Positions 68 to 19,643 of a stretch of 20,000 nucleotides of DNA are shown one piece after another. The position numbers and the translations under genes are program-made. The notes beneath the pieces were generated by a model. It had not been told where the DNA came from and did not search any database. It saw nothing but the letters and a program-made list of their open reading frames with translations. The number at the start of each line of letters is the position of its first letter. Position 1 is the first letter of the stretch. Origin of the DNA: Catajapyx aquilonaris (taxonomy: Eukaryota); NCBI GenBank assembly GCA_000934665.2, contig KZ538493.1:46558-66557 (forward strand), written 5' to 3'.

Positions 68-1509
68 TCAGCCAGACAAAGCTGTGCCAGTAGCTTTGGT
101 CACAGGTTTCTGAAAATGCCTAATTACATTGTAGGCCTCAGAAGATAGCTGCTTGGTCAGGAGCGAGTTCCGCACAACCTTCAGCTTCCTCTTTAAATTT
201 CTGCTTGACTGGTCAATGGCAACCACACACTTTCGCCACAACATGACGTCATTCAGTGCATTGAACTCCGAATATATAATTTCTCCAATCTTGTTCATAC
301 CTAAATCGGGAAACCGTCCTTTTCCGCATATTCCAGAGCAATTGCAGTGGTATCGAACACTGTCCTTGTACATCACTAGAGTCAGGAGAACTGCCGTTCT
401 CACAGGATTGTTGGAGGCTTCCTCCATAAGTCGCTTGATGATCGATTGAGGGTCTGATTTCATTTGGATGAACAGTCCATGAAGAGAAAATGTGTGATGG
501 AAAAAGTGGGTAAGTGGCACTTGCTGTACAATAATGGAACATTGGGACGAGCGTTTGGGGGAAGGTGAAGTCAAAAGATATGCTTCATCTGTTCCTGTCC
601 AATGTCTCTCTTCGGCTACAATCCCACACTGATCCTACGGCTCCTCCTCCTCCTGCTTCACTACATCTAATGCGACTCCATTGGATTGACTTGCATCGAT
701 TAATTCACGTGTGCAGCCAGCTCTTTCCAATCCCTTGTCCTCGGATGATGAAAGCAAAGTAGAAATTAATTTGTGCTGCGAAAAAAAGGAACATTAAATA
801 TACAGTGGCTGAATCTCAAACGGTTGAAAATTTTAATTCTATCAATGTCTCAGCTGAAGGTGCTCAAAATGATCATGCTACAGAAGGAGTGTATTGTAGT
901 AAAATAAGGATCAGTTGAAATGCTACCAAGTACCTCTCGCTCTTGAACTGTCTTCCTCTTTTTCTTCCGTGACATATGCACCTGAGATGTTGATGATCCT
1001 TGAGGTGCATGAGCCTCTTCAATGATCTTCGTTTGAAGATGGCTGGAATTCTCAGGGCCACCATTTTCATCTGATGATCCCTGGGTTGCGTGCACCTCTT
1101 CTGTGATGGACTCTGTCTTAAGTGGGTTGGCATTATTTTTAGCTTCACTTCGATCCGAGTCTTCTGCTGAACGAGCCAAGTCGAACAACACCAATCTTAA
1201 GAGTGTGGAAATGATCTGTCCAAAAAATTGAAGTTAGGCTACGTAACTCTAAAACATTTCAACACCCTGAGAATCCTGTCATTAGACTGCGCCCGTCAAG
1301 TACGATACTTACCAACCCTCTATAATTGATGAGGGGCATCCATCTCACCACCTTCACTTCTCCGCACCGTTTCTTTCCCTCCAGCTGGAGATATAATCCT
1401 CAATTCTTCCAACTCTCCTCTCGATGCCATCCACCTTCCTCTCTATTCTGGCCGACTGTTCCAGGCTCATTTCCAGAAAAGAAAGCATCCTATCCCACTG
1501 TACTTTCAT
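68..1509 (-). pseudogene. Disrupted coiled-coil + BEN-like domain gene (gene E)
   Basis: First exon from ATG 1509 (or 1488) reads MKVQWDRMLSFLEMSLEQSARIERKVDGIERRVGRIEDYI and aligns with the first exon of the ZF paralogs, but it meets TGA at 1354-1356 before the GTAAGT donor at 1312. A middle exon (~1215-933) is a low-complexity linker. The last exon (~740-68) has an in-frame TAG at 635-637, then RTAVLLTLVMY..RYHCNCSGICGKGRFPD..KIGEII..F..WRKCVVAIDQSSRNLKRK (~185-406), which matches the BEN pattern (G..GK..LD/ I..I..F / W..C..AID..R). Confidence 0.62.
991..1125. repeat. 81-bp-period internal duplication in gene E linker exon
   Basis: TGATGATCC at 991 and 1072; encoded peptides LKTESITEEVHATQGSS and LQTKIIEEAHAPQGSS lie 27 aa apart. 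Confidence 0.75.
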
Positions 1510-1932
1510 TCCAGTGCAAGGCAACGCAACCAACAAATCTAGAGGAAGCTGGACAGCAAATTCCCAGCGACTGCTGAGGGAAAAACGGAGCCACAAACGC
1601 CCGTTATTCCAACGCCATCTTTAGATTGGTGAGTTCCGATTCGCATCATTCATATAAACAAGCGTGGGCACTGTTCTAAAAATTAATAAAATCACAACAT
1701 TGTATTTTTAACCAATTACATGAACAACGTACAAAAGCTGTGAAATATTTGTGACAACCTCATTTGATCTGTTACATGAAAAAGTGCAGTACTGTACCTT
1801 GATGTATTCTCACAGTCATGTATGGATCATTAAATTAAATTAAAAGGCTTAACACACCAAGTGGGCCACTTTCTGTAGCACTGACCACTGTCCAATGTAT
1901 TCAGAACCACTGCCGAATCTTGACATATCTTT

Positions 1933-2991
1933 TTAGCTGATGCACTTTGCATGAGACGCTGACACTCCTGCGGTTGATGACTGTGTAAAGAGGAGGTTTG
2001 AGCATTTGATTGTAATTGGGTCTAAATGAGTAATAGCGTATGAAACTCACTGGAGGAGATACATGAGGTCCAAAGAGTGTAGGTCGGGCGTGAGGCCACA
2101 GCTTTTTCTTTAACGTCGAGCTGCAATGGCTTTCTTCAAAATGGAGCGAGCAAAATCGAGCATGCTTCTTTCCAATGCGCACTTGCTGAAGCGAATCACC
2201 GCAGTTGGCAGCACGGAGCCACTCACGGCATCTGTAATGTTGCAATACCACGTATATGGATTATGTAGTTGCACATAAAACTGGGTGTACTTAATTTGGT
2301 ACATTAGAAGAACTATTCGCTACGTTTTCATTGTAATCACTGAGACTATGCGAGAGAGGAAAGCAGTGAGTGTATGTAAAATAAAACATGTTCCTAAGAC
2401 ACTGTTTACCACTAAACTCACTTTTTTAGTGATAGTACATTAAAAATGATTAGATATAAAAATTAGACATGATGTGCCTACACATTATAACACATGCAGT
2501 GAATTGAGAACATCGCTTGCCAATAATAATTTTTCAGACTATGATGTGATGCAAATTTTAGGATTTCCTGGAGCATAACTACCTGAAACAATTATAAAAA
2601 GCGATAATAAAAATTAATATACCGGTACTTCATTGTGATTACATGCGCAATACCAAGCATACGACAAATTTTTGCACAATACAAAGTGCATAAAGTTGAG
2701 ATTTTTTAACATTTTAAAGATGTAAGTAATGTTTTAAGTAACCCTAGCAGTGGGGGTTCACACCTCCTGTTTTTTTATGCGCATAACTGTTATTAGAGAG
2801 TAAATTAGATTATCGGCGTTCAATTGGAAGGAGGGAAGAGTTTATTTTTCCTTACGTTTCTGGATCATTTGGTATTGCAAAGAAAGACAATTCTGGACGT
2901 TTGTTCTTTGTGGTGTTGCATCCTGGTACCATACAGGACAATCCGTTTCTTGTGTAAGGCCTGACCAAGGTCCTGTCCACGGTGGTCCTGA
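1933..2991 (-). CDS. THAP-domain protein module, copy 2 (exons 2991-2856, 2231-2051, 1980-1933; 5' exon not identified)
   Basis: Spliced translation ..SCMVPGCNTTKNKRPELSFFAIPNDPETCREWLRAANC..FCSLHFEES..LWPHARPTLF gives the THAP signature (C-x4-C, P, W, C-x2-H-F, AVPT-like box). Splice sites are canonical with matching phases. The last exon is frameshifted relative to copy 1 and stops at TAA 1933-1935. Confidence 0.8.
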
Positions 2992-3310
2992 CTGAAAACC
3001 AGAAACAAAACCAGATGCTAAAGAATGAATTGAACACTCTCGGCTCCTAACTTCCTTGTGGAGTGCACAAGTGGAATACGTTAGGATTTATCCATTGCAT
3101 CGGTGATTATGAAAACTTATTGTATTTATTTAAAAAGAACATAAACTCGGTACATGAAAAATGGTGTGAAATAACACCACAGTGCCGCCCTAATTTGGTA
3201 TGTTTAATGAAAAAGTACAGTACTGTACCTTTATGATGTATTCTCACAGTCACATTCACAGTAGTGTATGGATCATTAATTTAATTAAATGGCTTAACAC
3301 ACCAAGTGGG

Positions 3311-4185
3311 TCACTTTTTGTTGCACTGACCACTGTCCAATGTTTTCTGAACCACTGGTGAATCCTGTGCGGCACAACTGGTGAGACGCATCTTTTTAGC
3401 TGATGGACTTTCAGGGCGAGGTGCTGACACTCCTTCGGTTGATGACTGGAAGGAGGAAGTGTTGTACATTTGATTGTAATTGGGTCTAAACGATTCAGAG
3501 TATGAAACTCACCGAAGGAGCCGCTTGAGGTCCAAAGAGTGTTGGTTGGGCATGAGGCCACAGCTTTGTCTTTAACGTCGAGGTGCACTGACTCACATCG
3601 AAGTGGAGTGAGCAAAATGTAGCACGTGGGCGCTTCTTTCCAATACATGCTTGCAGAAGTGAATCACTACAGTTTGCAGCACAGAGCCACTCGCGGCATC
3701 TGCAAGGAAATGAATGGCCGATAATGCTGCAATACATCTTGTTAGACACGATAAATCTCATGGATTAGGTAGTTACAAATAAAACTGGGTGTACGTTATA
3801 TGGTGCATTACAAGAGCATTTTCATTTCAATCACTGAGACTGAGACTGAGAGGAAAATTGTGAGTTTAAAATATAAAGACACACTGTTTACCACTAACCT
3901 GACCTCTGTGTCTTTCATTTTTCTGTTTTACATGCACAAAATTGTTCTTAAAGAGTAAACTAAATTATCTGTGAACAATTGGGAGGAGGGAAACAGTTTA
4001 TTTTTAATCCCAGATTTTCCCAATTTGCTTTGAGATATGGCATTTAAATGTAAGTATAATGATAGCTTTTTCTTACCTTTCCGGATTACCTGGTACTTGA
4101 AAGAAAGACAATTCTGGGCGTTTTTTCTTTGTAGTGTTGCATCCTGGTACCATGCAGGACTGTCCACCTACTGAGTAAGTCCTGA
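3311..4185 (-). CDS. THAP-domain protein module, copy 1 (exons 4185-4077, 3699-3513, 3445-3311; possible start exon ATG 4316)
   Basis: SCMVPGCNTTKKKRPELSFFQVPGNPERCREWLCAANC..FCSLHFDV..LWPHAQPTLF, followed by a tail with NLS-like PSAKKMRL and TGA at 3311-3313. AATAAA on the minus strand near 3125. Confidence 0.83.
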
Positions 4186-4861
4186 CTGAAAAATCGAAGA
4201 AAGAAAAAAAAGGCACTAAGAATAACTTCATTATGGAGTGCCACAAGCCGAGTTATGTTAGGATTGTGCTTGATAATAATACCTCCATTGTATTGGTGGC
4301 GATTAAAACCTGCCATCAAATTCTTCCGAGTCCTTTACATATAAAAAATACCACATCCTACAACAGCAGATGAGTGAACCTTCTGAAACTGCAACTCGAG
4401 ACTGATTAGGAAAGTTTCCCAGAGTGTGCCCGTCACAAAATATAATCTACCCACTGCTATGGGAAGAGAAGCACTGAGTTTCACTGTCCGATCTTTCCAA
4501 TGAAAACTTTCTACTATATTTAAAGGTTGGGTAAAAGAAGCAAGTTTTCATGACCAGTAACGTGAATAGCACTCAGTAGTAATCTCCTTCGCAAGCAACA
4601 TGTACGTAAATACCACCTAGCAGCAAACTCAGGAATTGGAGGGAAAAAAACATTAGACAATAATTATCTGGTTCAACATTGCAGGCCGAACAAATTTATT
4701 ACTCTACAATATATGATGACAAAAACTGATATAAAGCCGTTGCAATAATTGTACATCATGACAGGCAGGCAGGAAGAAAAGGCACACCCATCTAGATTCT
4801 ACAAATTATTTTCCGACATCTGAATTTAAAACTGCCTATCATCTCCTATTTAACAAAAAGT

Positions 4862-5721
4862 CCAGCTAGTTGACAGCCAGTACGATCAATTGCAATTGCA
4901 TATTTAACATTACAAGTAAGCGATACAGTTTACTCCCAACTGTTTTACTGTTTACTGTTTAACACCCAATGTGCGTTACATGCTGCCCCTTCTAATTCCC
5001 ATCTCTTATTGTCATCTCTTTCCAACCTTACATTGCCCAGATATTATCATGCCAGCTGGACATACCCATTCCGATTAGTGCACTTGGCACGATACATGCT
5101 AGAAAGCTACAAATTTTCAAAACCAGTTTGATATGGTGCAAAGGGAAAGTGATAATTTATGGATTACACGGAAAAGTTTCAATCCAGGTCTAGTATTAAA
5201 AGCAACAGTGAATATTCAGCATGCAGTTCTGAATGGAATATCCCTTTTCGCACTTGCTCCTAAATATCGTGGAGTTAAATCGAGGCTAAACTCTAAACAC
5301 GAGGGTTCCATCTTACCCCACATTTTCATGTCTGGCAGTAAAATGACTTTGTACAATATCATACACTATACTAGAGTAAAAACCAGAATAAGTAAAATCA
5401 ATTAATAGCTCTAAAAAGAGGCTGAAAGGGCTCATAAAATCTGCTGATTAGGATCTTTTTCCAACCCAAAATGTCTGTGATAAAAAATTTTGAGGTTAAA
5501 ATTTATTTATTTATTTTTGTTACTGTGTTGGGCTGTATGCCATTGTGGTTAATAACGAGACCTAATATGGCATAAAATTTCACAATGTTACATTTGCCAC
5601 TCATTCTAAGGTTAAAAAGCATCATCCCGTACTTAGCAAAAAAAACCAGCTAGTTTGACGCCCAGTACGATCAATGCCAATTACATATATTTAACATTAC
5701 AAGTAAGCGACAGAGTTTACT
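4862..5721. repeat. ~75-bp direct repeat pair (4862-4934 and 5646-5721)
   Basis: CCAGCTAGTT..CCAGTACGATCAAT..CAATT..ATATTTAACATTACAAGTAAGCGA..AGTTTACT occurs twice, 784 bp apart, downstream of the gene D stop codon. Confidence 0.85.
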
Positions 5722-5755
5722 TTTCTGATGTGCACATGCGCATCCATGTGATATT

Positions 5756-8700
5756 TTATGTACAACCTGTTTGTGAATCCTTCCTCACACTTTGCACACG
5801 AGTATGGCTTCGTGCATGAATTATCAGAGCCCTTTCACGACTAAATCCCTTTCTGCACACATTGCAAGTGTAAGGCCGTATGCCATAATGCACAGCTCGA
5901 GTGTGCGCAGTGAGAGTACTTTTTTGCGTGAATCTCTTCCTGCAGCGTTCACAAGCAAATGGCTTTTCTGCATTGTGTTTTAACTGGCATGCCTTGTGGC
6001 TTCGCATGTGATATTTAAGAGCCCTTCCATGAGGGAATGCACCACCACACACATCGCAATGCTGTATTCCACTATGAAGGCTTTTCAAATGTGCTGTGAG
6101 AGTACTCTTTTGGGTGAAACTTCTTGGACACAAGACGCATCTAAACGGCTTCTCCCCTGTGTGAATTAACTTATGATCCCTTAAATGCCCCTTGTTCTTG
6201 GTGCTGTATGAACACATATCACAGTAGTGCAGCTTTCTGGTACCTGGTTCTGTCTTTGGAATAAGCAGTGCGGACACACCAGCATTGTCTTCCTCACTTC
6301 CTCTTTCCTCACCTGGTTGGATCACATCTGGTGTAAGAATACCAGCTGGTTCCTTTGAACTTCCAGGTTTAGACAAAGCATATCCATGTTCCTCATTGAC
6401 CTCAGCTACAGTGACATGTGACTTAACACATGCTGTAAGTTCAGCTGCTTTAGCAAAAGTCTTCTTACACACTCCGCATTGATAAGTCATCCACGATGAA
6501 CTAGGGTCATTCTGAAATTTAAAAAATATATATTAGCCATCCAATTTTTCCAGAATTTCTCAAAGTACTACTTCAGTTACAGATGTACAAGGAAAGCGTA
6601 ACTAACTTCTTCAACTGCAATTGGGTCAGTTGCTACCGAACTGTTAAAGGAAACGCTGCCAAAGGGATCATCTGGCTCTGATTTGACAGTTCTTCTGGCA
6701 TTCCTCACATGGTCTTGTGATGTTTCAATAGTTCCATCCTCGCAGTCATCCTGCAAGATAATAATTTTTTAAATTTTTTGCATCAAAAAAGCCTGGCTTA
6801 TACCATCCGTCTAAACCGTAAGAGAGAATGACAAATGTTTTTCGGATTCGGATTCAGCGGACCTTAAGTAGGTGTCATGGTCATCTTCCAGTCTGGTTTT
6901 CCGGGTTCACTCCATAGGCCAAGGTCAAGTCTAGCTTTCAATGGGAATGGGCTTGGCAATGGGAAATGAGACTGACATAATTCTATGTCATTACTGTCCA
7001 ATTAGAATCGCATCACATCGTCAGTGTCATTTCCAGTTGCCCAATGAAAAATAAAGCTACCGGTACGTTTACATGCAAGAGATTTCATCAGCGACTGAAC
7101 GAAAGTAACAATCCTGTGGTATCATTTTATTTTCGCCCCCCAAATAATTGGTCTCATCGCTCAGCAATGTACCGTACATCACTGCAACATAGCTGATCAA
7201 ATCGCTCACATGTAAACGTGCCATAAGCTGCGTTTACATATGAGCGATTTGATGAGCTAAGTCTTTGCCGAGGCTGAGTAACCCAAGTAACCAATATTGT
7301 TTGAGGCAAAAATCGATTGTTAATTTCGGCCTCGGTGAAGATTTCGCTCACATGTAAACGAAGCTTTAAGGTGGAAATGAAGCTAGAGTCACTTAATGAG
7401 AATTTTATGAAAAAAACATAATTATGTTACGCAGTTTTACTGTTACGCAGTTAAAACTCCCCACCCCCGTGGGTGCCCCAGTGGTTATTACGTTGCATAG
7501 TCTATGGATAAACATAAAATGCAATTATGTTGCTGCAGAACCATCAAGGATGGAATTTTAATCCCACTGCTATAGTTACTGCTAACTTAGCTATTCCAGT
7601 ACCAACACTGGTACTGCTAAGTTAGAAGTAACTATAGCAGTGGGACGAAATCGACCGTAAATCGTTACCAAGCGCGCGAGAGTCGAGATGGGACCTATGG
7701 CTAGGCACTATGCAAATGGTCCGCAAGAGTGCTGCAAGAGTTTGAACTTTTGGACGGTCACAAAAATACCACGAAACATCACCAACACATATACGTCTCT
7801 CACTTACACATTTTATGTGTTAGTGAGAAGTGAGCAGCGCCAGTAGCACCTTGCGACCGGAACGCCCACTTTTGCTAGGACGCTGAAAATACGGCCCATA
7901 ATACAGGGTGATGTCACGAAATTCGCACATAATCGCCAGGTAGAGTGCCAGAGCGCCAGCCACAAATTATAATCTATCATGACCCTCATCTTCCTCACCT
8001 ACACATTTCCTTACCATTGTCACTTTTTGGTTATATACAGGGTGTATCTGAACTCAGTGCCCCGACGTATATGACTGCCTTCCTAGCCACCAGAGGATCG
8101 ATTGAAGTATAGGAGTCATTATGTCTGGCAGCCGCATTACTGAGATAATTGGCCGCAAACATGTAGTACAAAATATCCTGTCGGTTAGGCCACCCATCGA
8201 ACCCTCCCCCAGTCAGAAGGCTCTGGAAGGTCTGGGGGCGGGACTTTGTTGGTTTGTTGCCCACAGGATGGTGGTAAGGCCTCTTTGGCTATAGTTACAC
8301 CAGAAAATTTTATTTAAAGGTCAGGAGCGATTAGGCAAAAATCGTTAAAGAATGTATCTCAGTAATGAGGCTGCCCAGACATAATGACTCCTCTACATAA
8401 GTTGATCCTCTCGTGGCTAGGAAGGCAGTCATATACGTCGGGGCACTGAGTTCAGATACACCCTGTATACTGGCAGTGTGGAAGATGACTTACTGAAAGG
8501 TAAGGAAAAGAAAAATGAGGGAAAACAAAAAACAAACACGTCAGTTATGTTTCACCCCATTAGGGGGAACTGTGCCATTTTGGGAGGCCGGGGACTACAT
8601 GTAAGATTGTCATTCTTCTCAACAGTGGCACAGTTAGTTCATTTATTGAAGAATCCAACAACTGACTTAATAACTCTCGCTGAATTTGTAACACGTGGTT

Positions 8701-11150
8701 TCCCACTTCCAATATTTTCACTAAGAAAGGCCCAAATGCCTTCCTGCCCCCCATGAGCGAATACGTCTCTGAGCTTGTCTATTGTCACACCTGCTGCAGC
8801 CATCTTGGCTATAATACCCTTAGAAATGGAACCAGCAAGTGGTGCAAGACCCAGTGCAATTTGGGCATTCTTGGCCTTGTCCTGTTGACTGCGCACAAAC
8901 ACTGATAATGGCACACTATGGCTGAGCAATGCACTACCAATGTCCAATGTCTTGCAGACACCTTCTAGTGCTAGCACATCGGAAGTAGCTTCGTGGGCTC
9001 CACTCGCATCATATCCGGCAACATATTTTTCTGCCAGAGCTGACAGCTTGTAGGTGGGCTCCTTCTTCCACTTCTCCTTGTCTTCTTTGTGGAGAGACCT
9101 CATCAGTGGAAGCGTATCAGCCACACCCCATACGACACCTTCAAAACTACTGCCAAGTCCATTGCGCTTCATTGCATCCAAAAGTCTAGGTACATCAAAG
9201 GCAAAAGCATTGTGCCCCGCCAACACAACATTTTCCCCAACACTGCGCAAGAAATCAAGGAACTTCTGCAAAGCATCTTCCACAGGTAATGCCGCCACTC
9301 CTTGACCACGGTGGAAAAGTTCTCCATCCACTACTGAGAGTCCTGTGATGGCACTTGCTGTAGCTGAGATGCTATGGGATGGTTTGGCATATACACTAAA
9401 GGGTGGGGTTCCAGAACCAGCGCATTTACCTGCGACCTGAATAATTTCACAATTCCTGTGAAGCCCAGTAGTCTCGATGTCGAAATACACCAGCACTCTA
9501 TTATCAAGCTCTGGACATGCAGATCCTGAGGGCAAGGTGGAGGCATCAGGGGCCTGAAGAAAGCCAACATCTGCCAGATATGAGACTCCTTCCCTCTGCT
9601 CCATACCTCGCCGTTGTTGGCTTCGTTGCTTCTTCACGAAGAGCCGCCTTGACTTGTATCTTTCTGAATTCTTCAGAATTCTGATCCGGTACCGTAGAGC
9701 ATCTTTTCTTTTCCTAGCTTTCTCTGTCAAGATACCTGGCGACATGGACAGCTTCTTGAAAGTTTGGCTGGAATACGCAGTCTCCAAATTTTTCTGACTG
9801 ACAGCAGCTGCCACACGGCTGTTGAGGCTGGCACTGCCTCCGTAAAACTTTGCCTTGGGAGTCTTGCTGATGACGATGCTATTGAAGCTCTCATTTGCTT
9901 GGCTTGATCCCCCCGGGGCAAGTTTTGCCATCGGCACCTAAGGCGTGAATGAGCTAGTTACGAACTATTCATACTGAATTACGGAAAGTGGACACAGTCT
10001 CTCACCTGCTTCAGCTCCCGTATCACAGCACACAAGCTTCAGAGGCAAGTACGGCACACCAACGCCCCAATTTTCGTGCACACCGGCAGCGGAACCAAGC
10101 AAAATCAGTCGAGAAATACTGCTAGAAAAATCCACCGACTAGCACTAGTTTTTTTCTTCGTCAAACTCCCCCACCCTTGTGGGTACCAGTTCACGAATCG
10201 AATTATTCGAATCCACCGGGCAAAGACGTCACATACTGCTACGCGATAATTGGCCCGGACCTTTGCTGCGTTGCCACTTCTATCTGTCACACGCGTACAT
10301 ACCAACTGAACGTGTTCCAAATCCGACACAAATGAAGAGCTACAAGCACCCCTTTCGGAACTAAACTTTTTAAAATGCCATGACAAATTGGGACCTCGTA
10401 ATTATGACCGAATAAAATCGATTTCCATCCAAAAAAAATAATATTAACCATACCTCTAAATTCCATGAAAATGGCGCCTGCGCACAAAAACTTCCAGCCG
10501 GTAATAGGCCCATATTAAATTGAGTTTAAAACACAGATTAGAATGGAATGCATAGGATTGAACAGCATTTACTGCTGCATCGGTTGCGTATGTTTCCCTG
10601 ATTTTAGCCCTTCTTATTAACATTCCAATTCTAGACTCTCATTTGATTAGCAAGTCGCTTCATTTCCACCTTAAGTAATGCAGAGGAAGCAGGTCATACC
10701 AGGCACACAAATAAGCCTGCAATATTTAAATGCGAGATACGCTAACACAGTCACCTCGGTATATACACTATGCGATGATTGTGTTATGATTCCGTCGGAG
10801 CTTCCTGCTGGAACTGGCCCACTCCGCATGTACTCTTCCGGTAAGAACTCTTGAAGAAATTCTTCACCTCCAGCGCCTTTATGGAGATAATACGAGATCA
10901 GTAAGACATACTGCGACACAGTGACTAATACCCAACCTGCTGCAGGTCGTGTCCTCCTTTCCGTCAGGATGAACCCTTCTATCCTGGCCATCCTTTGGTC
11001 CATCTGAGTCATCCTTTCGTCCATTTCTACCATCCTTTGGTCCATTTCAGACATGGTCCTTTCCATCCGGTCAGTCTGGGCAAGGCTGCGCTCCAGGAGG
11101 GTCACAACGTATGCCAGGCTTGTGTTGGGGAGTGATGATAAGGCGGCCAT
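5756..11150 (-). CDS. Coiled-coil + C2H2 zinc-finger protein, gene D (exons 11150-10937, 10876-10755, 6750-6607, 6511-5756; ~411 aa)
   Basis: The ZF exon has 5 canonical C2H2 fingers with TGEKPF-like linkers plus one C2CH finger. Exon 6750-6607 (..VKSEPDD..) has a clean AG/GT. The exon number and phases (1,0,0) are the same as in genes A and B. The join across the 4-kb transposon-filled intron is inferred from phase and paralog architecture. Confidence 0.75.
7062..7364. mobile_element. Two adjacent small related MITEs (7062-7222 and 7227-7364), possibly PIF/Harbinger-type
   Basis: Ends GGTACGTTTACATG..CATGTAAACGTGCC and GCTGCGTTTACATATG..CATGTAAACGAAGC. The facing ends form a 29-bp inverted repeat with 2 mismatches (7190-7218 vs 7231-7259). 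TSDs are unclear, so the superfamily is tentative. Confidence 0.6.
7562..7645. repeat. Near-perfect 84-bp hairpin
   Basis: 30-bp arms TCCCACTGCTATAGTTACTGCTAACTTAGC / GCTAAGTTAGAAGTAACTATAGCAGTGGGA (1 mismatch), with an inner stem CAGTACCA-acac-TGGTACTG. Confidence 0.85.
8038..8465. mobile_element. Tc1/mariner-type MITE (428 bp) nested in the TTAA element
   Basis: TA|CAGGGTGTATCTGAACTCAGTGCCCCGACGTATATGACTGCCTTCCTAGCCAC ... exact reverse complement ..CACCCTG|TA. TIRs are ~110 bp and the TSD is TA. Confidence 0.92.
8639..9937 (-). CDS. DEDDh (DnaQ-like/TREX-like) 3'-5' exonuclease with PML/Plex9-like C-terminus, preceded by a transposase C-terminal remnant (terminal exon, 432 aa)
   Basis: ExoI LVYFDIETTGL, ExoII LAGHNAFAFDV and ExoIII AHEATSDV are all intact. 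The tail ISKGIIAKMAAAGV..L..GGQEGI..L..GKPRVT resembles the region following the exonuclease fold in PML-like proteins. The N-part KLAPGGSSQANESFNSIVISKTPK..RVAAAV is typical of metazoan 'Mutator-like' transposase C-termini. Acceptor CCTTAG at 9938; a 68-nt intron lies upstream (10005-9938). Confidence 0.88.
   Translation of the reverse strand: MPMAKLAPGGSSQANESFNSIVISKTPKAKFYGGSASLNSRVAAAVSQKNLETAYSSQTFKKLSMSPGILTEKARKRKDALRYRIRILKNSERYKSRRLFVKKQRSQQRRGMEQREGVSYLADVGFLQAPDASTLPSGSACPELDNRVLVYFDIETTGLHRNCEIIQVAGKCAGSGTPPFSVYAKPSHSISATASAITGLSVVDGELFHRGQGVAALPVEDALQKFLDFLRSVGENVVLAGHNAFAFDVPRLLDAMKRNGLGSSFEGVVWGVADTLPLMRSLHKEDKEKWKKEPTYKLSALAEKYVAGYDASGAHEATSDVLALEGVCKTLDIGSALLSHSVPLSVFVRSQQDKAKNAQIALGLAPLAGSISKGIIAKMAAAGVTIDKLRDVFAHGGQEGIWAFLSENIGSGKPRVTNSARVIKSVVGFFNK
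10989..11051. repeat. 3 x 21-bp tandem repeat encoding coiled-coil heptads
   Basis: CATCCTTTGGTCCATCTGAGT / CATCCTTTCGTCCATTTCTAC / CATCCTTTGGTCCATTTCAGA, encoding SEMDQRM VEMDERM TQMDQRM. Confidence 0.9.
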
Positions 11151-11247
11151 GGGTTCGACAAGCACAGGGGCGGCCACGGGGCAGTAAAAGTAGGCGAACG
11201 AGGCTCGAAATAGTCGGAAATGGAAAAACGTTCTATTTCCAAGAAAC

Positions 11248-11299
11248 AGACGCCATATTTGTTGGGGCGCATTCGGGTGGTCGCTAAGTTGAACAGTTC
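11248..11299 (-). promoter_or_regulatory. Conserved 5' motif block of gene D
   Basis: Plus-strand AGACGCCAT..GGGCGCATTCGG..GAACAGTTC, shared with 15075-15135 and 18251-18311, each ~100-190 bp upstream of the coiled-coil ATG. Confidence 0.55.
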
Positions 11300-11618
11300 G
11301 TAATTGAGCTACTGTGAGTGTGCTGCCATCTCTGAACGGAATGGCGAAACACATTACTGTAAAGCGAAATACAGTAGCATTGTTGATGGCCCACTCACTT
11401 GAGATACATTGTTGGCATGATCCCACCAAATCTAAGATGGGTTATCATCAATCCATACCCCATGCCTGATTTGCAGAAATTATATAAAACTCTTCAATGA
11501 CGGCTGGGAAATTCATATAACATGAATGCTGAGGATCTGAAAAGACATTTATTTCACACAAATCACAATCACATGTTGGAAAATTCTTTGGGTGTGCAAG
11601 TGCAACACATCAAAAATG

Positions 11619-12294
11619 CGAGGGTGGTACAAAAATGATGTACAATTTATTTATTTTTGACAAAAAATTCAGGGTCGATGCAGGTAGGCAAAATAATAGC
11701 CACACACTATCGACATAACCCTCCTGGAGCCTCTCCAGGCCCCGTAGCAACCACTTTTTGGAGGTGGTGAGCAGCCACTACCGACGCACCACTACCGGAC
11801 AGCTGCTCACAGTCACCAACTATCAACAATCTGAACAATGTCCTCAAATGGCGTCAGTGAAGGGATTTTGTCATGGATCTTGCTTTGACACCCACTGCCC
11901 AGATATGTCTGGTGAAAAGCAGAAAACGGCTCGAAAAAGCGAAGGCGTCGGCCTGACGGGGACAGGATTTGAACTCCGGACCTCCTGCTTAGCTGGCCAG
12001 TAGTATAGCCACTAGAACCACCATGCTCCCCGCCTCCAGTGACTTTCATCTGTTCGAATATATTCAAAAAGTCCCTTAGCTGATGCCATTTCGAGGACAT
12101 TGTTGAGAGTGAAGAGTTGTCTGGGAGTCGGTAGGCCTCACAACCAAAAAGTGGCACCTGGAGGGCCTGGAAAGGTTGACCAGTGCGAGTGCCAGTGCAT
12201 TCGGCTGCAGGACGATTCTATATAACATGTGTGCCTATTTGCCAACCTGCATGGGCAAAAAAACATATCGTAAATCATTTTGGTACCGCCTTCG
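11619..12294. mobile_element. Degenerate mariner-type fold-back MITE with long imperfect TIRs
   Basis: CGAGGGTGGTACAAAAATGATGTACAAT vs ATCGTAAATCATTTTGGTACCGCCTTCG|TA. Further inverted blocks: 11676-11710 vs 12222-12253, and 11834-11870 vs 12066-12102. The left flank is TG (mutated TA?). Confidence 0.72.
11955..12030 (-). other. tRNA-derived sequence (SINE head / pseudo-tRNA) in the MITE core
   Basis: Minus strand GGGAGCA-TGGTGGTTCTAGTGG (A box) ... GGAGTTCAAATCC (B box)-TGTCCCC with tRNA-like spacing; the stems are imperfect. Confidence 0.7.
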
Positions 12295-12602
12295 TACTTA
12301 AACATAACCCATATTCAGGTGTTCTGTCAAGTTCTGCTTGTCCTGGTCTTGTATTTCACTAACGTTCTCCTACATGTATGAGTTTTTTCATTGATTAGAT
12401 TACCTCACTTGAATATACCTTAGATTTTGACAGAGATCATGTGAAACTGAATAAATACGAAAACTTTTGGTTTGCAGGAGTTTTAAATTAAACAATAACT
12501 TAAGTTGCTTCCTCAGAGCAGTACCATACAACATCGGTACTGAAATGTGCTTTCTCAAACTCTGAAAAGTTGTTTTTCTTGCTGCGAATTTCTCCCAATA
12601 CC

Positions 12603-14971
12603 TCAAGATCGAGTGTGGCTTGCACTTGCTGTATGAAGGCGTCGCACATGCACATTCATGTTATGCTTCAAGGTGAAAGTACGATTGCAAAATTGACAAG
12701 AATATGGCCTTTCTCCAGTATGTTTGCGCAAATGCTTAATCATGTCAGATTTTGCAGCAAAACGTTTATGGCAGACATGGCAAGTGAATGGTTTCACACC
12801 TCCGTGAACCATTCCGTGATACTCCAGCTGCTGATAGTAGCTGAAAGCCATCCCACACACCTCACACTTGTAAGGTTTTAAACCAAGGTGAACAGCTTTC
12901 ATATGAACAGATTGATAATATTTTGTGGTGAAGCTGGCACCACATAATTTGCAATAAAATTTTGTTTGACTCTCTCCTGGATGGAAATCATCACGTGCTG
13001 AATGGGCCAACTGATGAGAAGCAAATTCTCCCTTGCCATTGGTAGCATATGAACAGACTTTGCAACAGAATAAAGCAGGTTTTGCAGCCCCTTTCTCTAC
13101 CTTTCCTTTCCTCTTGCATCTTTCTTGGGTACACTCAGTCTCAATTGCCTGGAGATGATCTGGAGATGCACTTCCTCCAGAGTATTCACCCTGTACCACA
13201 AAGATGTTTTGTTGTCCTGACTGAGACATGTCCATAACCTCCTCTTCTTGTTTAACTATCACTTCATGAGACTTGATGCATTCTTCTAGAGCAGATGGAT
13301 TGTGGAAAGTTTTGTTGCAGATGCCACATTGAAAAGGGTCCCTGGATGGCAGCTGGCTCTTTGGAAAGAAATGGATAAATATTAGTGTCAATCAGTCATG
13401 AAAATCCTGAGATGCTGTAATTAACTTGAAAACTTTATAATAAGCAAGGCCATGCCCCCCAATTCTTCTGATTTCTGCCAGCTTAATTATTGTGTCGTGG
13501 TCCTATAATAACACTTTGCGCAACCCACCAATCTCCTCCTGTCCGCACTATTTTTATTACAAGCATCATCCCAGGAATAATGTAGTTGCTCCAAGGCAGT
13601 ACACTCACATCCTGATGCCCAGGCGGATGCAATTCCACTTGTCCATTGAAGGAATCATTCACATCATTACTCCGGTAGAGGGATGGGTTTTCAGCCACGC
13701 AGCAATCAATATCGGACCTGCTTCCTTCAGTTTGTCGCGTCAGTAATTCAGTCATCTCTTGCTTCCAGTTTTCCTAAAGGAAAATAACATCATTAATTTC
13801 AATGTGAAGCAGCAAAATGCCTCTCCATTGCAACATGTACAAGTGCTTCAATCAAATGATTTAATTCAGCAATACTTCTGTAGGCTTATGGTTCACTCTC
13901 AAATACTCTTCTTTTCACTAAACAAGTTTGAACAAGTTATTTATAAATCTTGGGAAACAGATGGCTGTGTCATACCTTAACCATGGAACCGGGACGTAGG
14001 GTATTTAGGACCCCAAAGGAAGTAAAAATGCAAAATGCATCGCAATGAGTGACCTTGAAACGATAATGACCTAAAACTCCGTGTATTCCTTAAAAAAACT
14101 TAATTTCATGGATCAAATCTGGTTTCATAATTTTCACACCTACCAAAATGTACATAAGTCGTTGTTTTTGGACCCATGCTCTCGTGGGGTCCAAAAGGAG
14201 ACCCACGTCACGGTTCGGGGCATACACGAAAGAAAACTCTCCACTAGAAAATTAAACTGTTGCCATTTTCAAAAACAGTATATAACAGAAAGTGCATGTT
14301 TATTTTGAATTAGCGATCATTTTATACATTGTTCAAAGAATGATTGCATGTAGCCAACACATTGAAAAGTATTATCAAAAAATTAATAAAAATAAAAATA
14401 TGGCATGTCACGGTTAATGTCACTTTCAGGCATTTCACGATTCCAGGGTTAACACCACAAAGGCCAAACCCATGATCTGAAATGCAGCATCATACGACAC
14501 CGACATTTGCTTAATCTACCATAATAATCCTCAGAAGAATTACAGATGAAGCTTACCTCCACCTCTAAAGTGTGGTTCACTAATTCAGGCTGTCCAAAAA
14601 GTGCCCCATGCATGTCAAAAGTAGCAGAAGTTCCTTGATGAACTGGTAGATGCTGCTCTGACAGACCTTCTTCAATAGTCGTATCAGAGCTTCTTTCATG
14701 ATGCACTTCTGTAGGGGGTAAAGAGTAAACGGTATTGTATACTTTACAACAAAGACAATAGGGCTTGAATTCCCAACTCAGAGCTACACCTAACCTTCAT
14801 CATGAGTTGTCTTCCTCTTCCCTTCCTCTTCCCTCAGGATGAACCCTTCTATCCTGGCCATTCTCCTGTCCATATCCGCAATGGTCCTCTCAATCCTGCC
14901 AGTCTGGGTCAGGCTTCGTTCCAGGAGGGACACAACGTGGGGCACAACAAGGTTGGTTGTTGGGTGGCCAT
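12603..14971 (-). pseudogene. Coiled-coil + C2H2 zinc-finger gene B with 5' frameshift (exons 14971-14795, 14708-14557, 13773-13609, 13358-12603)
   Basis: Exon-for-exon paralog of gene A. Exon 1 is 177 nt vs 175 nt: an extra TG near 14944 gives TGA at 14909-14911 after 20 codons. The other exons and splice sites are intact, with one C2CH and five C2H2 fingers. An in-frame ATG at 14873 could rescue a shorter protein. Confidence 0.75.
13981..14448. mobile_element. piggyBac-like MITE in intron 2 of gene B
   Basis: TTAA|CCATGGAACCGGGA ... TCACGATTCCAGGG|TTAA (11/14 TIR match), with internal GGACCC/GGGTCC motifs. Confidence 0.68.
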
Positions 14972-15074
14972 GTCCTCCTCAGCAATATTCCAACAAGCGG
15001 TCCTTCAGCAGGGAATGGAAATGGGAGGAAAAGGAAGCGATGGCAGAAGAAGGAAAGAAAAACCAGAACTAGAC

Positions 15075-15135
15075 AGATGCCATGTTGGGCGCATTCGGAT
15101 CGACGGCACTTTACCTCCAAAGAACTGTTCAAAAT
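15075..15135 (-). promoter_or_regulatory. Conserved 5' block of gene B (putative TSS / short non-coding exon donor)
   Basis: Nearly identical to 18251-18311; minus strand TTTTGAACAGTTCTTTGGAG|GTAAAGTG..CCGAATGCGCCC..ATGGC. Confidence 0.55.
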
Positions 15136-15298
15136 GTAAATCATTTTCTGGGTTGAATATGTCACAATGCCCTTCGCAATTAAAATATAACATCTTCAAA
15201 AGTGGGCTGGATAAATCCATTAAATATGTACCTCAAAGTCAGGAAAGTCAGGAGAGTTCAAGAAAGGCCCCCCCGATACATCAAGATTGGGTGTGTAT

Positions 15299-18124
15299 TC
15301 ACGTTGTCGTATGAATACGTTGCACATGCAGAGTCATGGCATGATTCCAGGTGGATTTATGATTACAAAATGGGCAAGAACATGGCTTCTCTCCTGTATG
15401 TTTACGCAAATGCTTCTTCAAATCAGATTTTGTAGCAAGACATTTAAGGCACACGTGACAACTGAATGGTTTCTCACCCGTGTGGACCATTCTGTGACGC
15501 TTCAGATCATGAGATTTGCTGAAAGCCTTCTCACATACCTCACATTGGTAAGGTTTTAATCCAAGGTGAACAGATTTCCAATGATCTGATAAAGAGTATG
15601 TAGTGGTGAAGCTGGTACTGCACAATTTGCAGTAATATTTTGATTCACTCCCTTCTGGACGGACCTTACCATGCGCTGAATGGGTCAGCTGATGAGAAAC
15701 AAATTCTACCTTTTCATTGGTAGCATATGAACACACTTTGCAACAGAATGAAGCAGGTTTTTTGGCCCCTTTCCCTCCATTTTCTTTCCTTCTGCATCTT
15801 AATAGGGTCCTCACAGTCTCATTTGCCTGGAGACGCTTTGGAGATGCACTTCCTCCAGATGTTTCTCCTTGTACCACAAAGCTGTTTTGCTGTCCTGAGT
15901 GAGCCTGCATAACCTCCTCTTCCTGTTCAACTTTCACTTCATGGGACTTGATGCATTCTTCCAGAGCAGATGGAATGTTGAAAGTCTTGTTGCAGATTCC
16001 ACATTGAAAAGGGTCCCTGGATGGCAGCTGGCTCTTTGGATAAGAATGGATAAAAATTACTATCAACCAGTCATGATAATAATCCTAAGATGCTTCTGTA
16101 AATAACTTGCACACTTTATAATAAGGGATAAAGATTATCCATCCCTTCCAATTCTCCACGTTGGAAGAAATCCACATGATCGCTTATGTTTGAAATACAG
16201 ATTTCACCCCTTCTGATCCGTCTTTCCTGCAATTCATTAAGCTAATTATGCCATGTACATCCTTACAAACTTTTGCTTCCTTCCCTAAACCAGCAGGCAG
16301 GCAGAATAAATTGAAGCAAGCTGCACAAAATTTCCGCTGCCATTATGACACTTTTGGCAGCATGATGTGTCATAGTCCTACTGCAACAGTCTTCCCAGCC
16401 CACTAATCCCCTCCTGTCCACATTATTTCTCTTCCAAGCAGCATCCCCATAATCATGCATAATGTAGTTGTCCCGAGCCAATACACTCACATTCTCATGT
16501 CGAGATGCATGCAATTCCACTTGTCCACTGAAGGAATCACTGGCTTCATGACTCTGGTGTAGGGATGGGTTTTCAGTTACACAGTCAACAGTCACATCAA
16601 CGCTTCCGTCATATTCTCGTGTAGGTAATTCTGGCATATCCTGCTTCCAGTTTTCCTGCAAGAAAATAACTCCTTTAGTTTTAATGTAAAGCAGAAAGAT
16701 GTCCTTGCATTGTAATATGCACATATCATCCAACAGGAACACACAACAATTTTTTGTGACTATGAAACACTTTGGTACAATCAAATGTCAGCCATAAGGC
16801 ACATTCATAAAACCACTTCTTTTTTTAAAAACTTTAACTGTATAATTTTTTTAACAATGTTGCAGGAAACTGAAATGGATTTGTGAATGGACCTTGAGCC
16901 AGTCAACATCCCAAAGGCCTAACCCATGCACAGTGTGTCCAAATGCGGGATTGCTTGCACAACAATGGAAAAAGCAAATTGGCCGAGTCCTGTCAAATCT
17001 GCCCTAACGTAAGAAATTAATGTCCGAACAATAATAAGAATTTCTTTGGTAGGTTCCATTGATAAGGGTTTTATACCAGGCAGGTATACTCATGTCGAGT
17101 GTTTGCCTGCCACCGTTTTGTGCATATTCAGTCAACTTCTAATGGTCACGGAAGAAAGGTCACCGCATTTCCACATTCAGGCTCATCAGGATTTTGAGCT
17201 GCGCATAAAATACCTCTGGCTAAGTAATACTAACTCTCTTGCAGCAATTTGAATGTGACCTTGAAATGTTGGCAGCAGTGGTTCTTTTGTTGAGGATTGC
17301 ATTATGCGCATATCATAACATTCCTCTCATTTTAAAGACGAAAAAGTGGATTTCACAAAATTTCACTTCAAATCACACATTAAAAGAAAGACTAGACTCC
17401 CCAGGTATAGATTAATTCGTTTCAATGTGGTCACATTTTTCTAAAAGGAGGTCAGATTTGTCAAGGGAGCAGTTTGCTACCCTGACGAAATAGGTGCATG
17501 AATCTATCATCACAAGGTCGAATGTAATCGTTCCTTCTGTGCGTCAATGTGAAATGCGCTACTTTTGTCTTAAAAATCAGAGGAAAGTCGTGACAAATAC
17601 GCTTGGAAGTGGGAGCCATTGTCCAAGCATTCACGCATTTGGGCCACACTGTGCCATGGCCTGAAATGCATCGGCATGCCACCCTGACACTCGCCGGATA
17701 ATTATGACATCTGGAGCAGAATGCTTACCTCAACCTCTAGAGGGTCGTTCACCGCTTCCGCTTGCCCCAAGTTCCCTCCGAGATTATCCAAACCTGGGCA
17801 GGTCCCTCGATGTAGAAGCTGCTCCGATTTGCAATCTTCAACCGTAATATCATAGCCTCTCTCATGATGTAGTTCTGTAGGGAATAGACGGTATTGCATA
17901 TGTTCCCACAAACGCAATGGGCATAAATAGGGCTTGAATTCCACCCAACCTGCATCATCAGGTGTCCTCTTCCCTCCCTCCTGTTCCTTCAGGATGAACC
18001 CTTCTATCCTGGCCATCCTCCTGTCCGTCTCTGCAATGGTCCTCTCAATCCTGTCATTCTGCGCCAGGCTTCGTTCCAGGAGGGACACAATGTGGGGCAA
18101 CCAGGTTGGTTGTTGGGTGGCCAT
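15299..18124 (-). CDS. Coiled-coil + C2H2 zinc-finger protein, gene A (exons 18124-17950, 17874-17729, 16655-16491, 16033-15299; 406 aa)
   Basis: Canonical GT-AG sites, phases 1/0/0, open throughout: MATQQPTWLPHIVSLLERSLAQNDRIER.. / ELHHERG.. / ENWKQDMP.. / SQLPSRDPFQC.. with one C2CH and five C2H2 fingers and TGEKP linkers. Confidence 0.87.
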
Positions 18125-18250: not shown

Positions 18251-18311
18251 AGACGCCATGCTGGGCGCATTCGGTTCGACGCCACTTTACCTCCAAAGAA
18301 CTGTTCAAAAT
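18251..18311 (-). promoter_or_regulatory. Conserved 5' block of gene A
   Basis: Same block as 15075-15135; lies only ~140 bp from the stop codon of gene C, whose AATAAA is at ~18426-18431 on the minus strand. Confidence 0.55.
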
Positions 18312-18452: not shown

Positions 18453-19190
18453 TCAAGTTGTTGTATGAATACGTCGCACATGATTAGTCATGTTATGCTT
18501 CATCGTGAACTTACGATTGCAAAATTGGCAAGAATATGGCTGTTCTCCTGTATGTACACGCATATGTCTAATCAATTCATATTTTGTAGCATGACATTTA
18601 AGGCACACGTGACAACTGAATGGTGTCTCACCTGTGTGGGCCATTCTGTGACGTTTCAGATGCTGATTTTGGGCAAAAGTCCTCCCACATACCTCACATC
18701 CATAAGGTTTTAACCCAAGATGAACCGCTTTCATATGAATAGATCGAGCGTAATTACTGCTGTAGCTGGCACCACACAATTTGCAGTAAAACTTTGCTTT
18801 ACTACCTCCTGGACGGACCTTACCATGCGCTGAATGGGTCAGCTGATGAGAAACAAATTCTACCTTGTCATTGGTAGCATATGAACACACTTTGCAACAG
18901 AATGACGCAGGTTTTTTGGCCCCTTTCTCTCCCTTTCTCCTCCTCTTGCATCTCAATAGGGTCCTCTCAGTCTCATTTTCCTGGACATGCTCTGGAGATG
19001 CACTTCCTCCAGATGATTCTCCCTGCACCACAAAGCTGTTTTGTTGTCCTGAGTGAGAAACCTGCATAACCTCCTCTTCCTGTTCACCTCTCACTGTATG
19101 CGACTTGACACATTCTTCCAGAGCAGATGGAATGTTGAAAGTCTTGCTGCAGATGCCACATTGAAAAGGGTCCCTGGATGGCAGCTGGCT
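18453..19190 (-). CDS. Terminal zinc-finger exon of paralog gene C (upstream exons not in window)
   Basis: Acceptor TCCAAAG|AGCCAG as in genes A and B; one C2CH and five C2H2 fingers; TGA at 18453. Flanking intron 19190-19420 is homologous to 16034-16280. Confidence 0.87.
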   Translation of the reverse strand, partial: SQLPSRDPFQCGICSKTFNIPSALEECVKSHTVRGEQEEEVMQVSHSGQQNSFVVQGESSGGSASPEHVQENETERTLLRCKRRRKGEKGAKKPASFCCKVCSYATNDKVEFVSHQLTHSAHGKVRPGGSKAKFYCKLCGASYSSNYARSIHMKAVHLGLKPYGCEVCGRTFAQNQHLKRHRMAHTGETPFSCHVCLKCHATKYELIRHMRVHTGEQPYSCQFCNRKFTMKHNMTNHVRRIHTTT

Positions 19191-19643
19191 CTTTGGATAT
19201 AAATGGATAAAAATTAGTGTCAACCTGTCATGATAATCCTAAGATGCTTCTGTAAATAACTTTCACACTTTATAATCCCTTCCAATTCCCCAAGGTCTAA
19301 GCAATCAACATGAGCATTATGTTTTAAATGCAGTTTTTACCCCTTCAAACCCCCTATTTTCTGCAATTCATTAAATATTAAGCTCATTAATCCATGTACT
19401 ATCCGTTGCAAAAACTTTCGGTCACTTCGTCCTGACTCTTTCATTCATCCGGGGTCTTGAAGCAACACTTCACACATGCCCCCAAGGTAAGGAGGGGTGT
19501 GTTTGTGACTGTATGTCTGTGGTTATCTGCTGAGTTTTTTTTACTCCACCCTTAATCTCACATTCTCCCTCGGCGCCCGCTCGCTTGTCTTTGTAACCAG
19601 AAATTCAAGTACGACACCAAATATTATGGTTTTATTTTGCTGA

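Follow-up and report, generated by a model that had tools for sequence, protein, structure and literature searches.

A shared first exon in a tandem gene family of Catajapyx aquilonaris

A stretch of 20,000 nucleotides (nt) from Catajapyx aquilonaris (GCA_000934665.2, contig KZ538493.1, positions 46,558-66,557 of the forward strand; referred to as the window in the following, with all positions and copy counts relating to it) contains a family of C2H2 zinc-finger genes, each of four exons and arranged in tandem on the minus strand, here termed B, C and D, plus the finger exon of one more. The first exons of these genes and of a candidate fourth gene, A, encode homologous copies of a short segment, the module, which is predicted to be an Arg/Glu-rich amphipathic helix. 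Judged from its sequence and from spliced contigs, the module exon is coding, under purifying selection and spliced. We infer, with confidence that is evenly balanced, that it is a lineage-restricted, family-defining first exon specifying an N-terminal coiled coil through which the proteins may oligomerise.

All features of interest reside on the minus strand, as read from stop-to-stop open reading frames (ORFs) and Pfam matches. The original prediction had named four loci with a homologous first exon, and this was borne out: ATGs are present at 1509 (gene A), 11150 (B), 14971 (C) and 18124 (D), each followed by a module fitting the proposed consensus. On sequence comparison the homology among the four copies is real and well above chance. 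Searching the window by tblastn at relaxed settings returned exactly four copies (E values with D as the query: 8e-21 for C, 2e-12 for B and 1e-6 for A); the next match, at E 0.21, is the N-terminus of copy C read in another frame, and unrelated matches begin at E 2. In blastp, A and D are identical at 16/33 residues (E 3e-9). Identity to copy D amounts to 64% for C, 56% for B and 39% for A, the most diverged copy, and 13 alignment columns are invariant throughout (L16, E17, S19, L20, Q22, R25, E27, R28, R36, R39, I40, E41 and I44, numbered as in D). Exon 1 ends in phase 1 in all four genes. The length of about 45 amino acids (aa) proposed for the exon did not hold: exon 1 specifies 47 residues in A, 58 in D and 71 in B, and the shared core comprises 34 residues, 48 in B.

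Upstream of each ATG, at a distance of about 95-135 nt, lies an invariant ATGGC(G) motif (18254-18259, 15079-15083, 11251-11256 and 1613-1618, all on the minus strand), which is preceded by CGAATGCGCCC in B, C and D and reads AAAGATGGCG in A. By its sequence it looks like a common core-promoter or 5' untranslated region (UTR) element, and we presume a resemblance to a YY1 site. Its presence at all four loci indicates a joint duplication of promoter, 5' UTR and module.

Exon structure and splicing of the zinc-finger genes

Four C2H2 zinc-finger ORFs reach the gathering score of zf-C2H2 (PF00096) with four to six stretches each: 5756-6532 (E 5e-25), 12603-13391 (1e-20), 15299-16084 (3e-16) and 18453-19238 (3e-19), all stop-to-stop. 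The first three contain the last exons of B, C and D. The fourth (18453..19238, minus strand) is the finger exon of a further upstream paralog with 82.8% DNA identity to the finger exon of D, and its first exon would fall past the end of the window. Splicing was assessed with public contigs of a single run, X1, the kind of which is not on record; they cover part of the region, contain 0.21 of its words and were placed on the whole window at 90% likeness. The parts skipped at five of their joints begin and end with CT..AC, corresponding to GT..AG on the gene strand, and as these joints fall on splice sites read from the sequence, X1 was taken as RNA-derived. That three of the loci continue into C2H2 arrays is supported by spliced contigs for B and C, while for D an intact gene model and homology point the same way.

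Gene B starts with exon 1 at 10937..11150 (minus; ATG 11150, 71 codons + 1 nt), which carries the module with a 42-nt, two-heptad insertion. Its junction with exon 2 (10755..10876, 122 nt) is predicted, the acceptor being placed by phase. One X1 joint (10754|6749, cut +1) then leads from the donor of exon 2 across a 4004-nt intron to exon 3 (6607..6750, 144 nt), and a second (6607|6511) from exon 3 to the C2H2 exon, which includes the stop codon (5756..6511); both ends of exon 3 are thus fixed by joints and conform to GT-AG. The complete model is an intact 411-aa ORF with canonical sites.

In gene C, the module exon (14795..14978, minus; module frame open from 14978) is connected to exon 2 (14557..14708, 152 nt) by joint 14795|14708 across an 86-nt intron. 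The end of exon 2 is predicted at GAG|GTAAGC. Exon 3 (13609..13773, 165 nt; acceptor predicted) is linked to the finger exon (12603..13358, stop included) by joint 13609|13356; this joint carries two differing letters, and the canonical AG sets the start of the finger exon at 13358. The ATG at 14971, which had been named as the start of the C module, is out of frame because of a 2-nt insertion relative to D between ATG and module. Read from this ATG, C meets a stop after 20 codons, and in the module frame there is a stop immediately upstream and no ATG. The insertion sits in a TTGTTGTG run (14940-14971, minus). All four exons are open in the module frame over 418 codons, which argues that the lesion is very recent, a polymorphism or an assembly error; gene C could thus be a very young pseudogene, a polymorphic allele or wrongly assembled.

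Gene D consists of exon 1 (17950..18124, minus; ATG 18124, 58 codons + 1 nt, phase 1; donor CAG|GTTGGG) with the module, a predicted exon 2 encoding an acidic linker (17729..17874, 146 nt; acceptor ...CTACAG|, donor GAG|GTAAGC) that is homologous to exon 2 of C, a predicted exon 3 (16491..16655, 165 nt; donor AAT|GTGAGT) that is homologous to exon 3 of C with its joint-confirmed donor, and the C2H2 exon including the stop (15299..16033). The whole model is an intact 406-aa ORF with GT-AG sites, all junctions being predicted. An identical 470-nt contig (14999-15468) extends from the last exon of D, whose stop is at 15299, and comes as close as 28 nt to the ATG of C, so that the 3' UTR of D and the 5' exon of C may overlap or be read through.

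Three X1 joints that go back along the window and joint 14711|14807, with 18 other letters, were not counted as copies; they look like transcripts of further paralogs placed at 90% likeness. X1 depth is 0 in bins 668-1334 and 9339-10005, where missing cover is not a finding. Summed depth is very high in bins 6671-7337 (63), 8005-8671 (56) and 12007-12673 (188), compared with 0-14 in most others, and many loose ends are found there. These bins probably represent expressed interspersed repeats in intronic and intergenic positions.

Conservation and selection

When D is set against its distant paralog B, conservation is highest in the module exon, with 34/54 identical residues (63%), compared with 7/41 and 10/44 in the two linkers and 83/221 (38%) in the finger exon. 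The only blastn match of B with D or C comprises 50-54 nt at the 3' end of the module at 88-89% identity. D and C, separated by about 3.15 kb, arose by recent duplication; their exons are 74-82% identical and their introns mostly unalignable by blastn. For the 34-codon core, the ratio of nonsynonymous (dN) to synonymous (dS) substitution rates after Nei-Gojobori is 0.20 for D-B and 0.24 for C-B. In comparisons with A, dS is saturated and dN amounts to 0.40-0.47, indicating that A has been kept as coding.

These values bear on the idea, anticipated in the original prediction as a way in which it could fail, that the module is neutral duplication debris: tandem duplication and gene conversion would have copied promoter and exon together, and the peptide would have no function. 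Such hitch-hiking would be in line with the 5' UTR and upstream motif being shared along with the exon and with the recent origin of the D and C duplicates, and gene conversion could also yield the 50-54-nt patch that B shares with C and D. It is nevertheless very improbable. A dN/dS of 0.20-0.24 for B against C and D and conservation that favours the module over the zinc-finger exon argue for purifying selection; the 13 invariant columns persist despite saturated dS against A, a pattern that conversion would not give, and the sole indel is in frame and in heptad register.

Coiled-coil character and possible function of the module

The best heptad register is identical in all four copies, with Ile, Leu, Met or Val at most a and d positions. 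These read I-L-S-N-I-I-T-M-I-I in D and V-L-S-T-M-M-M-M-M-M-M-M-I-I in B, giving three canonical heptads in the module and five in B. Besides heptads, the copies show the absence of proline and the one or two glycines near the end that are compatible with a coiled coil. Among 5000 shuffles of each sequence, the observed a/d contrast was matched by none for B, 64 for A, 66 for C and 285 for D. The single indel, found in B, measures 42 nt, i.e. 14 codons or exactly two heptads, and leaves the register intact with Met at all inserted a and d positions. A length change by whole heptads, combined with better conservation than that of the fingers, suggests a coiled-coil segment that is under selection.

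The likeliest mode of action is that the module forms a short parallel coiled coil, dimeric or tetrameric, which would unite at least two arrays of DNA-binding fingers. Since the paralogs hardly differ at core and surface positions, they could also pair with each other, and mixed oligomers within the family are plausible. A prediction of the complex of two copies of D exon 1, for which the exon's own alignment was not used, scored 0.02 (mark 0.32) and is evidence neither way. ZAD and SCAN, which are described as characterising C2H2 families in rapid expansion (PMC7913770, PMC3458555), are located at the N-terminus and mediate self-association, and the function proposed here for the module is likewise self-association. 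Unlike these multi-helix bundles, the module is a single helix, without Pfam match or cysteine.

Several observations weigh against an oligomerising coiled coil or against parts of the evidence for it. The heptad contrast of D is modest; in A, C and D the hydrophobic core spans three heptads, which is short for a stable coiled coil, and Ser and Asn/Thr occupy two N-terminal a/d positions. The conserved surface residues R25, R28, R36, R39, E17, E27 and E41 (D numbering) fit a cofactor-binding helix equally well. Copy C is not translatable from its ATG and may be decaying, D-C dN/dS being 0.62 on nine differences, and all dN/dS estimates derive from just 34 codons. As to splicing, the RNA nature of X1 is deduced from its GT-AG joints, and joint 13771|14649 (TC..TA, side 28) lacks canonical ends and conflicts with the C model, in which exon 2 ends at 14557. 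For genes D and A, X1 lists no joint, and this counts neither for nor against them.

The surface residues lead to an alternative that we regard as somewhat unlikely, namely that the module is an effector helix recruiting a co-repressor or other cofactor, as KRAB recruits TRIM28 and as has been proposed with TRIM33 for FiNZ and KRAB-like domains, possibly by packing on a coiled coil of that cofactor. The invariant solvent-facing residues at b, c and f positions (E17, Q22, R25, R28 and R39) would not be needed by a generic coiled coil. The arrangement of a small N-terminal exon, linkers and fingers within a tandem cluster that has THAP and exonuclease genes next to it also resembles that of zinc-finger proteins (ZNFs) repressing transposable elements, as far as these are described in the available portions of PMC10547256, PMC11603059 and PMC9101882. 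On the other hand, Pfam gave no KRAB similarity, and the clean two-heptad insertion in B is easier to reconcile with a coiled coil that tolerates changes in length than with a fixed surface for docking. Effector function could hold alongside oligomerisation.

FiNZ also differs from the module in size and composition. In the part of its description available, it is a glutamate-rich, cyprinid-specific sequence of 28 aa in a two-exon gene, encoded directly upstream of the finger exon (PMC10547256). Both are short, lineage-restricted N-terminal sequences on an exon of their own, without similarity to known domains, in tandemly expanded ZNF genes. The core of the module, in contrast, has 34-48 aa, is Arg/Glu-rich with Arg at least equalling Glu in D, C and B and exceeding it in D and C, shows heptads and belongs to a four-exon gene with two further exons before that for the fingers; the two are set apart here by description and not by alignment of consensus sequences. 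The KRAB-like ZNF domain of actinopterygians is described, in the sections available, as similar to KRAB and widespread in ray-finned fish (PMC9101882, PMC11603059). It is tentatively set apart, likewise by description, the module having no KRAB similarity in Pfam and no fish protein among its profile matches.

Search for a named domain or relatives

The module had been put forward as lacking ZAD cysteines and any recognisable BTB, SCAN or KRAB pattern and as possibly undescribed; in keeping with this, it matched no named domain. At E<=10, Pfam returned nothing for exon 1 of D and A, and for B solely sub-threshold coiled-coil families (JetA, DUF7310, TolA_bind_tri and others). KRAB (PF01352) was matched neither at E<=10 by exon 1 of D, B and A nor at E<=1 by longer ORFs holding all four copies, and SCAN (PF02023) and BTB (PF00651) were listed for no module sequence. 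ZAD relies on four zinc-binding cysteines; none of the four aligned modules contains a cysteine, which excludes the zinc-binding ZAD fold, and ZAD (PF07776) had no Pfam match. In the ESM Atlas the best value for the module was 0.87, below the lead threshold of 0.9.

A profile of the four copies was compared with all PDB chains. The best match, at E 0.042 over 18 residues, was the helix-D tetramerisation coiled coil of the ion channel KCNQ1 (Kv7.1; PDB 3hfc), a 31-residue peptide that shares the a/d register in this part (RIERtiaeiDRRMaRIE in the module, RVEDKVTQMDQRMALI in KCNQ1). Most likely this reflects convergent heptad patterns, offering a lead on the oligomeric state and not homology.

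The same profile found three matches at E<=0.001 among 1,835,955,588 representative proteins, none of them a zinc-finger protein: one is a translated satellite-like repeat of 2045 aa, and the other two are small proteins of coiled-coil type bearing D-x-R-M/V-A/N-R-I/V-E-G motifs. When each copy was left out in turn, the E value to be expected in a library of this size was 5e-19 to 2e-11 for a copy resembling D, C or B and 0.03 for one resembling A, so that the search could have found close B/C/D-like members, and none was found. Fish proteomes within the collection held no protein matching the module. A word-indexed search of longer proteins with module D gave 22 candidates, none at E<=0.01. 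The finger exon of D matches 139 generic ZNFs from fish, other vertebrates and invertebrates at E<=1e-10, all at <=51% identity; the module was present in 0 of the 7 examined from at least 120 ZNF relatives among the matches listed. The literature on N-terminal domains of ZNFs turned up no description of such a coiled-coil exon, which is weak evidence of absence. An origin of the module from a transposon was considered and rejected, as no transposon protein appeared in the profile search.

The D-x-R-(V/M)-(A/N)-R-(I/V)-E-G-x-(I/V) motif in the module's C-terminal half recurs in small prokaryotic coiled-coil proteins of a membrane-anchored kind (P0123, P0124 and the L001 ORF at 1547-1816). The latter, a prokaryote-type ORF of 89 aa on the plus strand with DNRVARIEGYILKEE, was the only one of 122 pattern matches in a metagenome scan that passed tblastn, and its likeness was judged to be convergence. 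All three contain repeats of D-x-R-(M/V)-A-R-(I/V)-E-G-(H/Y/Q)-(V/I) that are near-identical to this half of the module. They differ from the module proteins in comprising 89-199 aa without a DNA-binding domain; in two of them the N-terminus carries a hydrophobic segment. The matches cover 23-45 residues at library E values of 6e-5 to 6e-4. This likeness, too, seems to be convergent and to represent a recurrent coiled-coil motif.

It appears very improbable indeed that the module corresponds to some domain already named, or to part of a transposon protein, and was missed by these searches. Short coiled coils are hard to detect, FiNZ and KRAB-like domains were distinguished by description and not by alignment, and gene predictions often skip the first exons of ZNF clusters, hiding relatives from protein libraries. 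Yet Pfam, the PDB profile search and the Atlas were all negative, and the search of 1.84 billion proteins, powered for B/C/D-like copies, brought up neither a ZNF nor a transposon protein. The KRAB-like ZNFs are reported as widespread in ray-finned fish, and the fish proteomes in the collection gave no module match.

A candidate BEN-like gene with the same first exon

The original prediction let the fourth copy continue into a BEN-like domain. A predicted, phase-consistent GT-AG model would allow this; X1 contributes no joint, and the BEN label comes from weak matches. Gene A would comprise exon 1 (1368..1509, minus; ATG 1509, 47 codons + 1 nt, phase 1, predicted donor ACG|GTGCGG), a candidate exon 2 with an acidic stretch and a basic KKKRK patch (934..1163, predicted from phase-compatible GT-AG sites), a candidate exon 3 (662..775, predicted) and a candidate last exon with the BEN-like ORF and its stop (68..523; similarity in PDB and Atlas). 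These four exons (1509-1368, 1163-934, 775-662 and 523-68) stay open for 313 codons from the ATG at 1509 to the stop at 68, and in the model the KKKRK patch separates the module from the BEN-like part. Over 199-461, the last exon is covered by an identical contig. The stop-to-stop ORF at 68-634 has 188 codons, and because of the in-frame TAG at 634-636 a splice before 634 must be assumed.

Neither ORF 68-634 nor its part 68-523 matched any Pfam family even at E<=10, the gathering score of BEN (PF10523) not being reached, and a word-indexed protein search gave 37 candidates, none of them a relative. The better of two PDB matches by phmmer was the BEN domain of BEND3 (7v9i_A) at a weak E of 0.26 over 77 aa (query 75-151, chain 24-102 of 114), aligning the motifs N-x-SG-x-C-x-K and W..C...ID...R. 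By Atlas features the ORF is close, at 0.91 and 0.90, to clusters of which 25% and 33% of the members carry BEN. The label BEN-like is therefore reasonable but unproven.

It is quite possible, if short of an even chance, that the link with BEN is not real. Copy A would then be the remnant of a first exon, or a separate short transcript, that segmental duplication left behind, the BEN-like ORF would belong to another gene or a pseudogene, and the module would be confined to C2H2 genes. The missing X1 joint between 1368 and 68, the TAG that splits two downstream ORFs and makes the splice an assumption, the weak donor ACG|GTGCGG and the lack of a Pfam match or word-indexed relative for the BEN-like ORF all fit this explanation. 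It is opposed by the open four-exon model with matching phases, by exon 1 of A ending in phase 1 like the other three, by the dN of 0.40-0.47 at saturated dS and by the contig that is identical over part of the BEN-like exon.

If gene A is intact as modelled, promoter and first exon would have been duplicated onto a second class of DNA-binding gene, the joint duplication of promoter, 5' UTR and module providing a possible route. A comparable layout is known from the Drosophila BEN-solo protein Insensitive, whose BEN domain is C-terminal and whose N-terminal coiled coil, reported as a predicted and cross-linked tetramer, brings about its multimerisation (PMC6317261). The candidate gene A is comparable in layout only, with its N-terminal coiled coil and C-terminal BEN-like part; the coiled coil of Insensitive, as given in the same source, differs in residing at about aa 51-104 with six to seven heptads and not at the extreme N-terminus. 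Hetero-oligomerisation between DNA-binding classes is a hypothesis. In its most far-reaching form, an undescribed oligomerisation domain would have moved with promoter and first exon onto C2H2 and BEN-like classes, would form mixed complexes through a near-invariant and promiscuous interface and would be a coiled-coil counterpart of ZAD and SCAN; we consider this unlikely.

Neighbouring genes

C2H2 genes, THAP genes and the BEN-like ORF lie side by side at this locus. Two small THAP genes are arranged in tandem at 3184-4153 and 1901-3046 (both minus), and in each of them two exons share the THAP domain (Pfam parts 4073-4252 with 3495-3764 and 2852-3046 with 1901-2260). The THAP exons (1901-4252) were considered as upstream exons of gene A and rejected, as the upstream THAP gene begins at an ATG of its own near 4153, is spliced in a contig (3513|3445) and has a stop near 3315.

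An ORF of 432 codons (8639-9937, minus), in the same orientation as gene B, occupies part of its 4-kb intron and contains an exonuclease domain of the DEDDh RNase_T type (E 5e-10) combined with PML_C (E 8e-10); it may be a nested gene, the remnant of a transposon or a 3' end used alternatively by B. An identical X1 contig covers 8591-8914 in this region. The ORF resembles the PML-like 'Plex9' exonucleases reported in fish, as far as described in the accessible part of PMC10123124.

Meaning for zinc-finger gene families

Expanded ZNF families are defined by N-terminal domains such as KRAB, SCAN, ZAD, BTB and FiNZ, and each newly found one has revealed the way in which a lineage couples DNA binders that evolve fast to repression or to the architecture of chromatin. 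Lineage-specific N-terminal domains associated with ZNFs are thus known as such; what is added here is an apparently unnamed coiled-coil exon. The 34-residue core peptide would offer a simple experimental handle on self-association and partner binding. A coiled-coil exon without a named counterpart, better conserved than the fingers it precedes and maybe common to a BEN-type gene as well, would add a further independent solution to this task.

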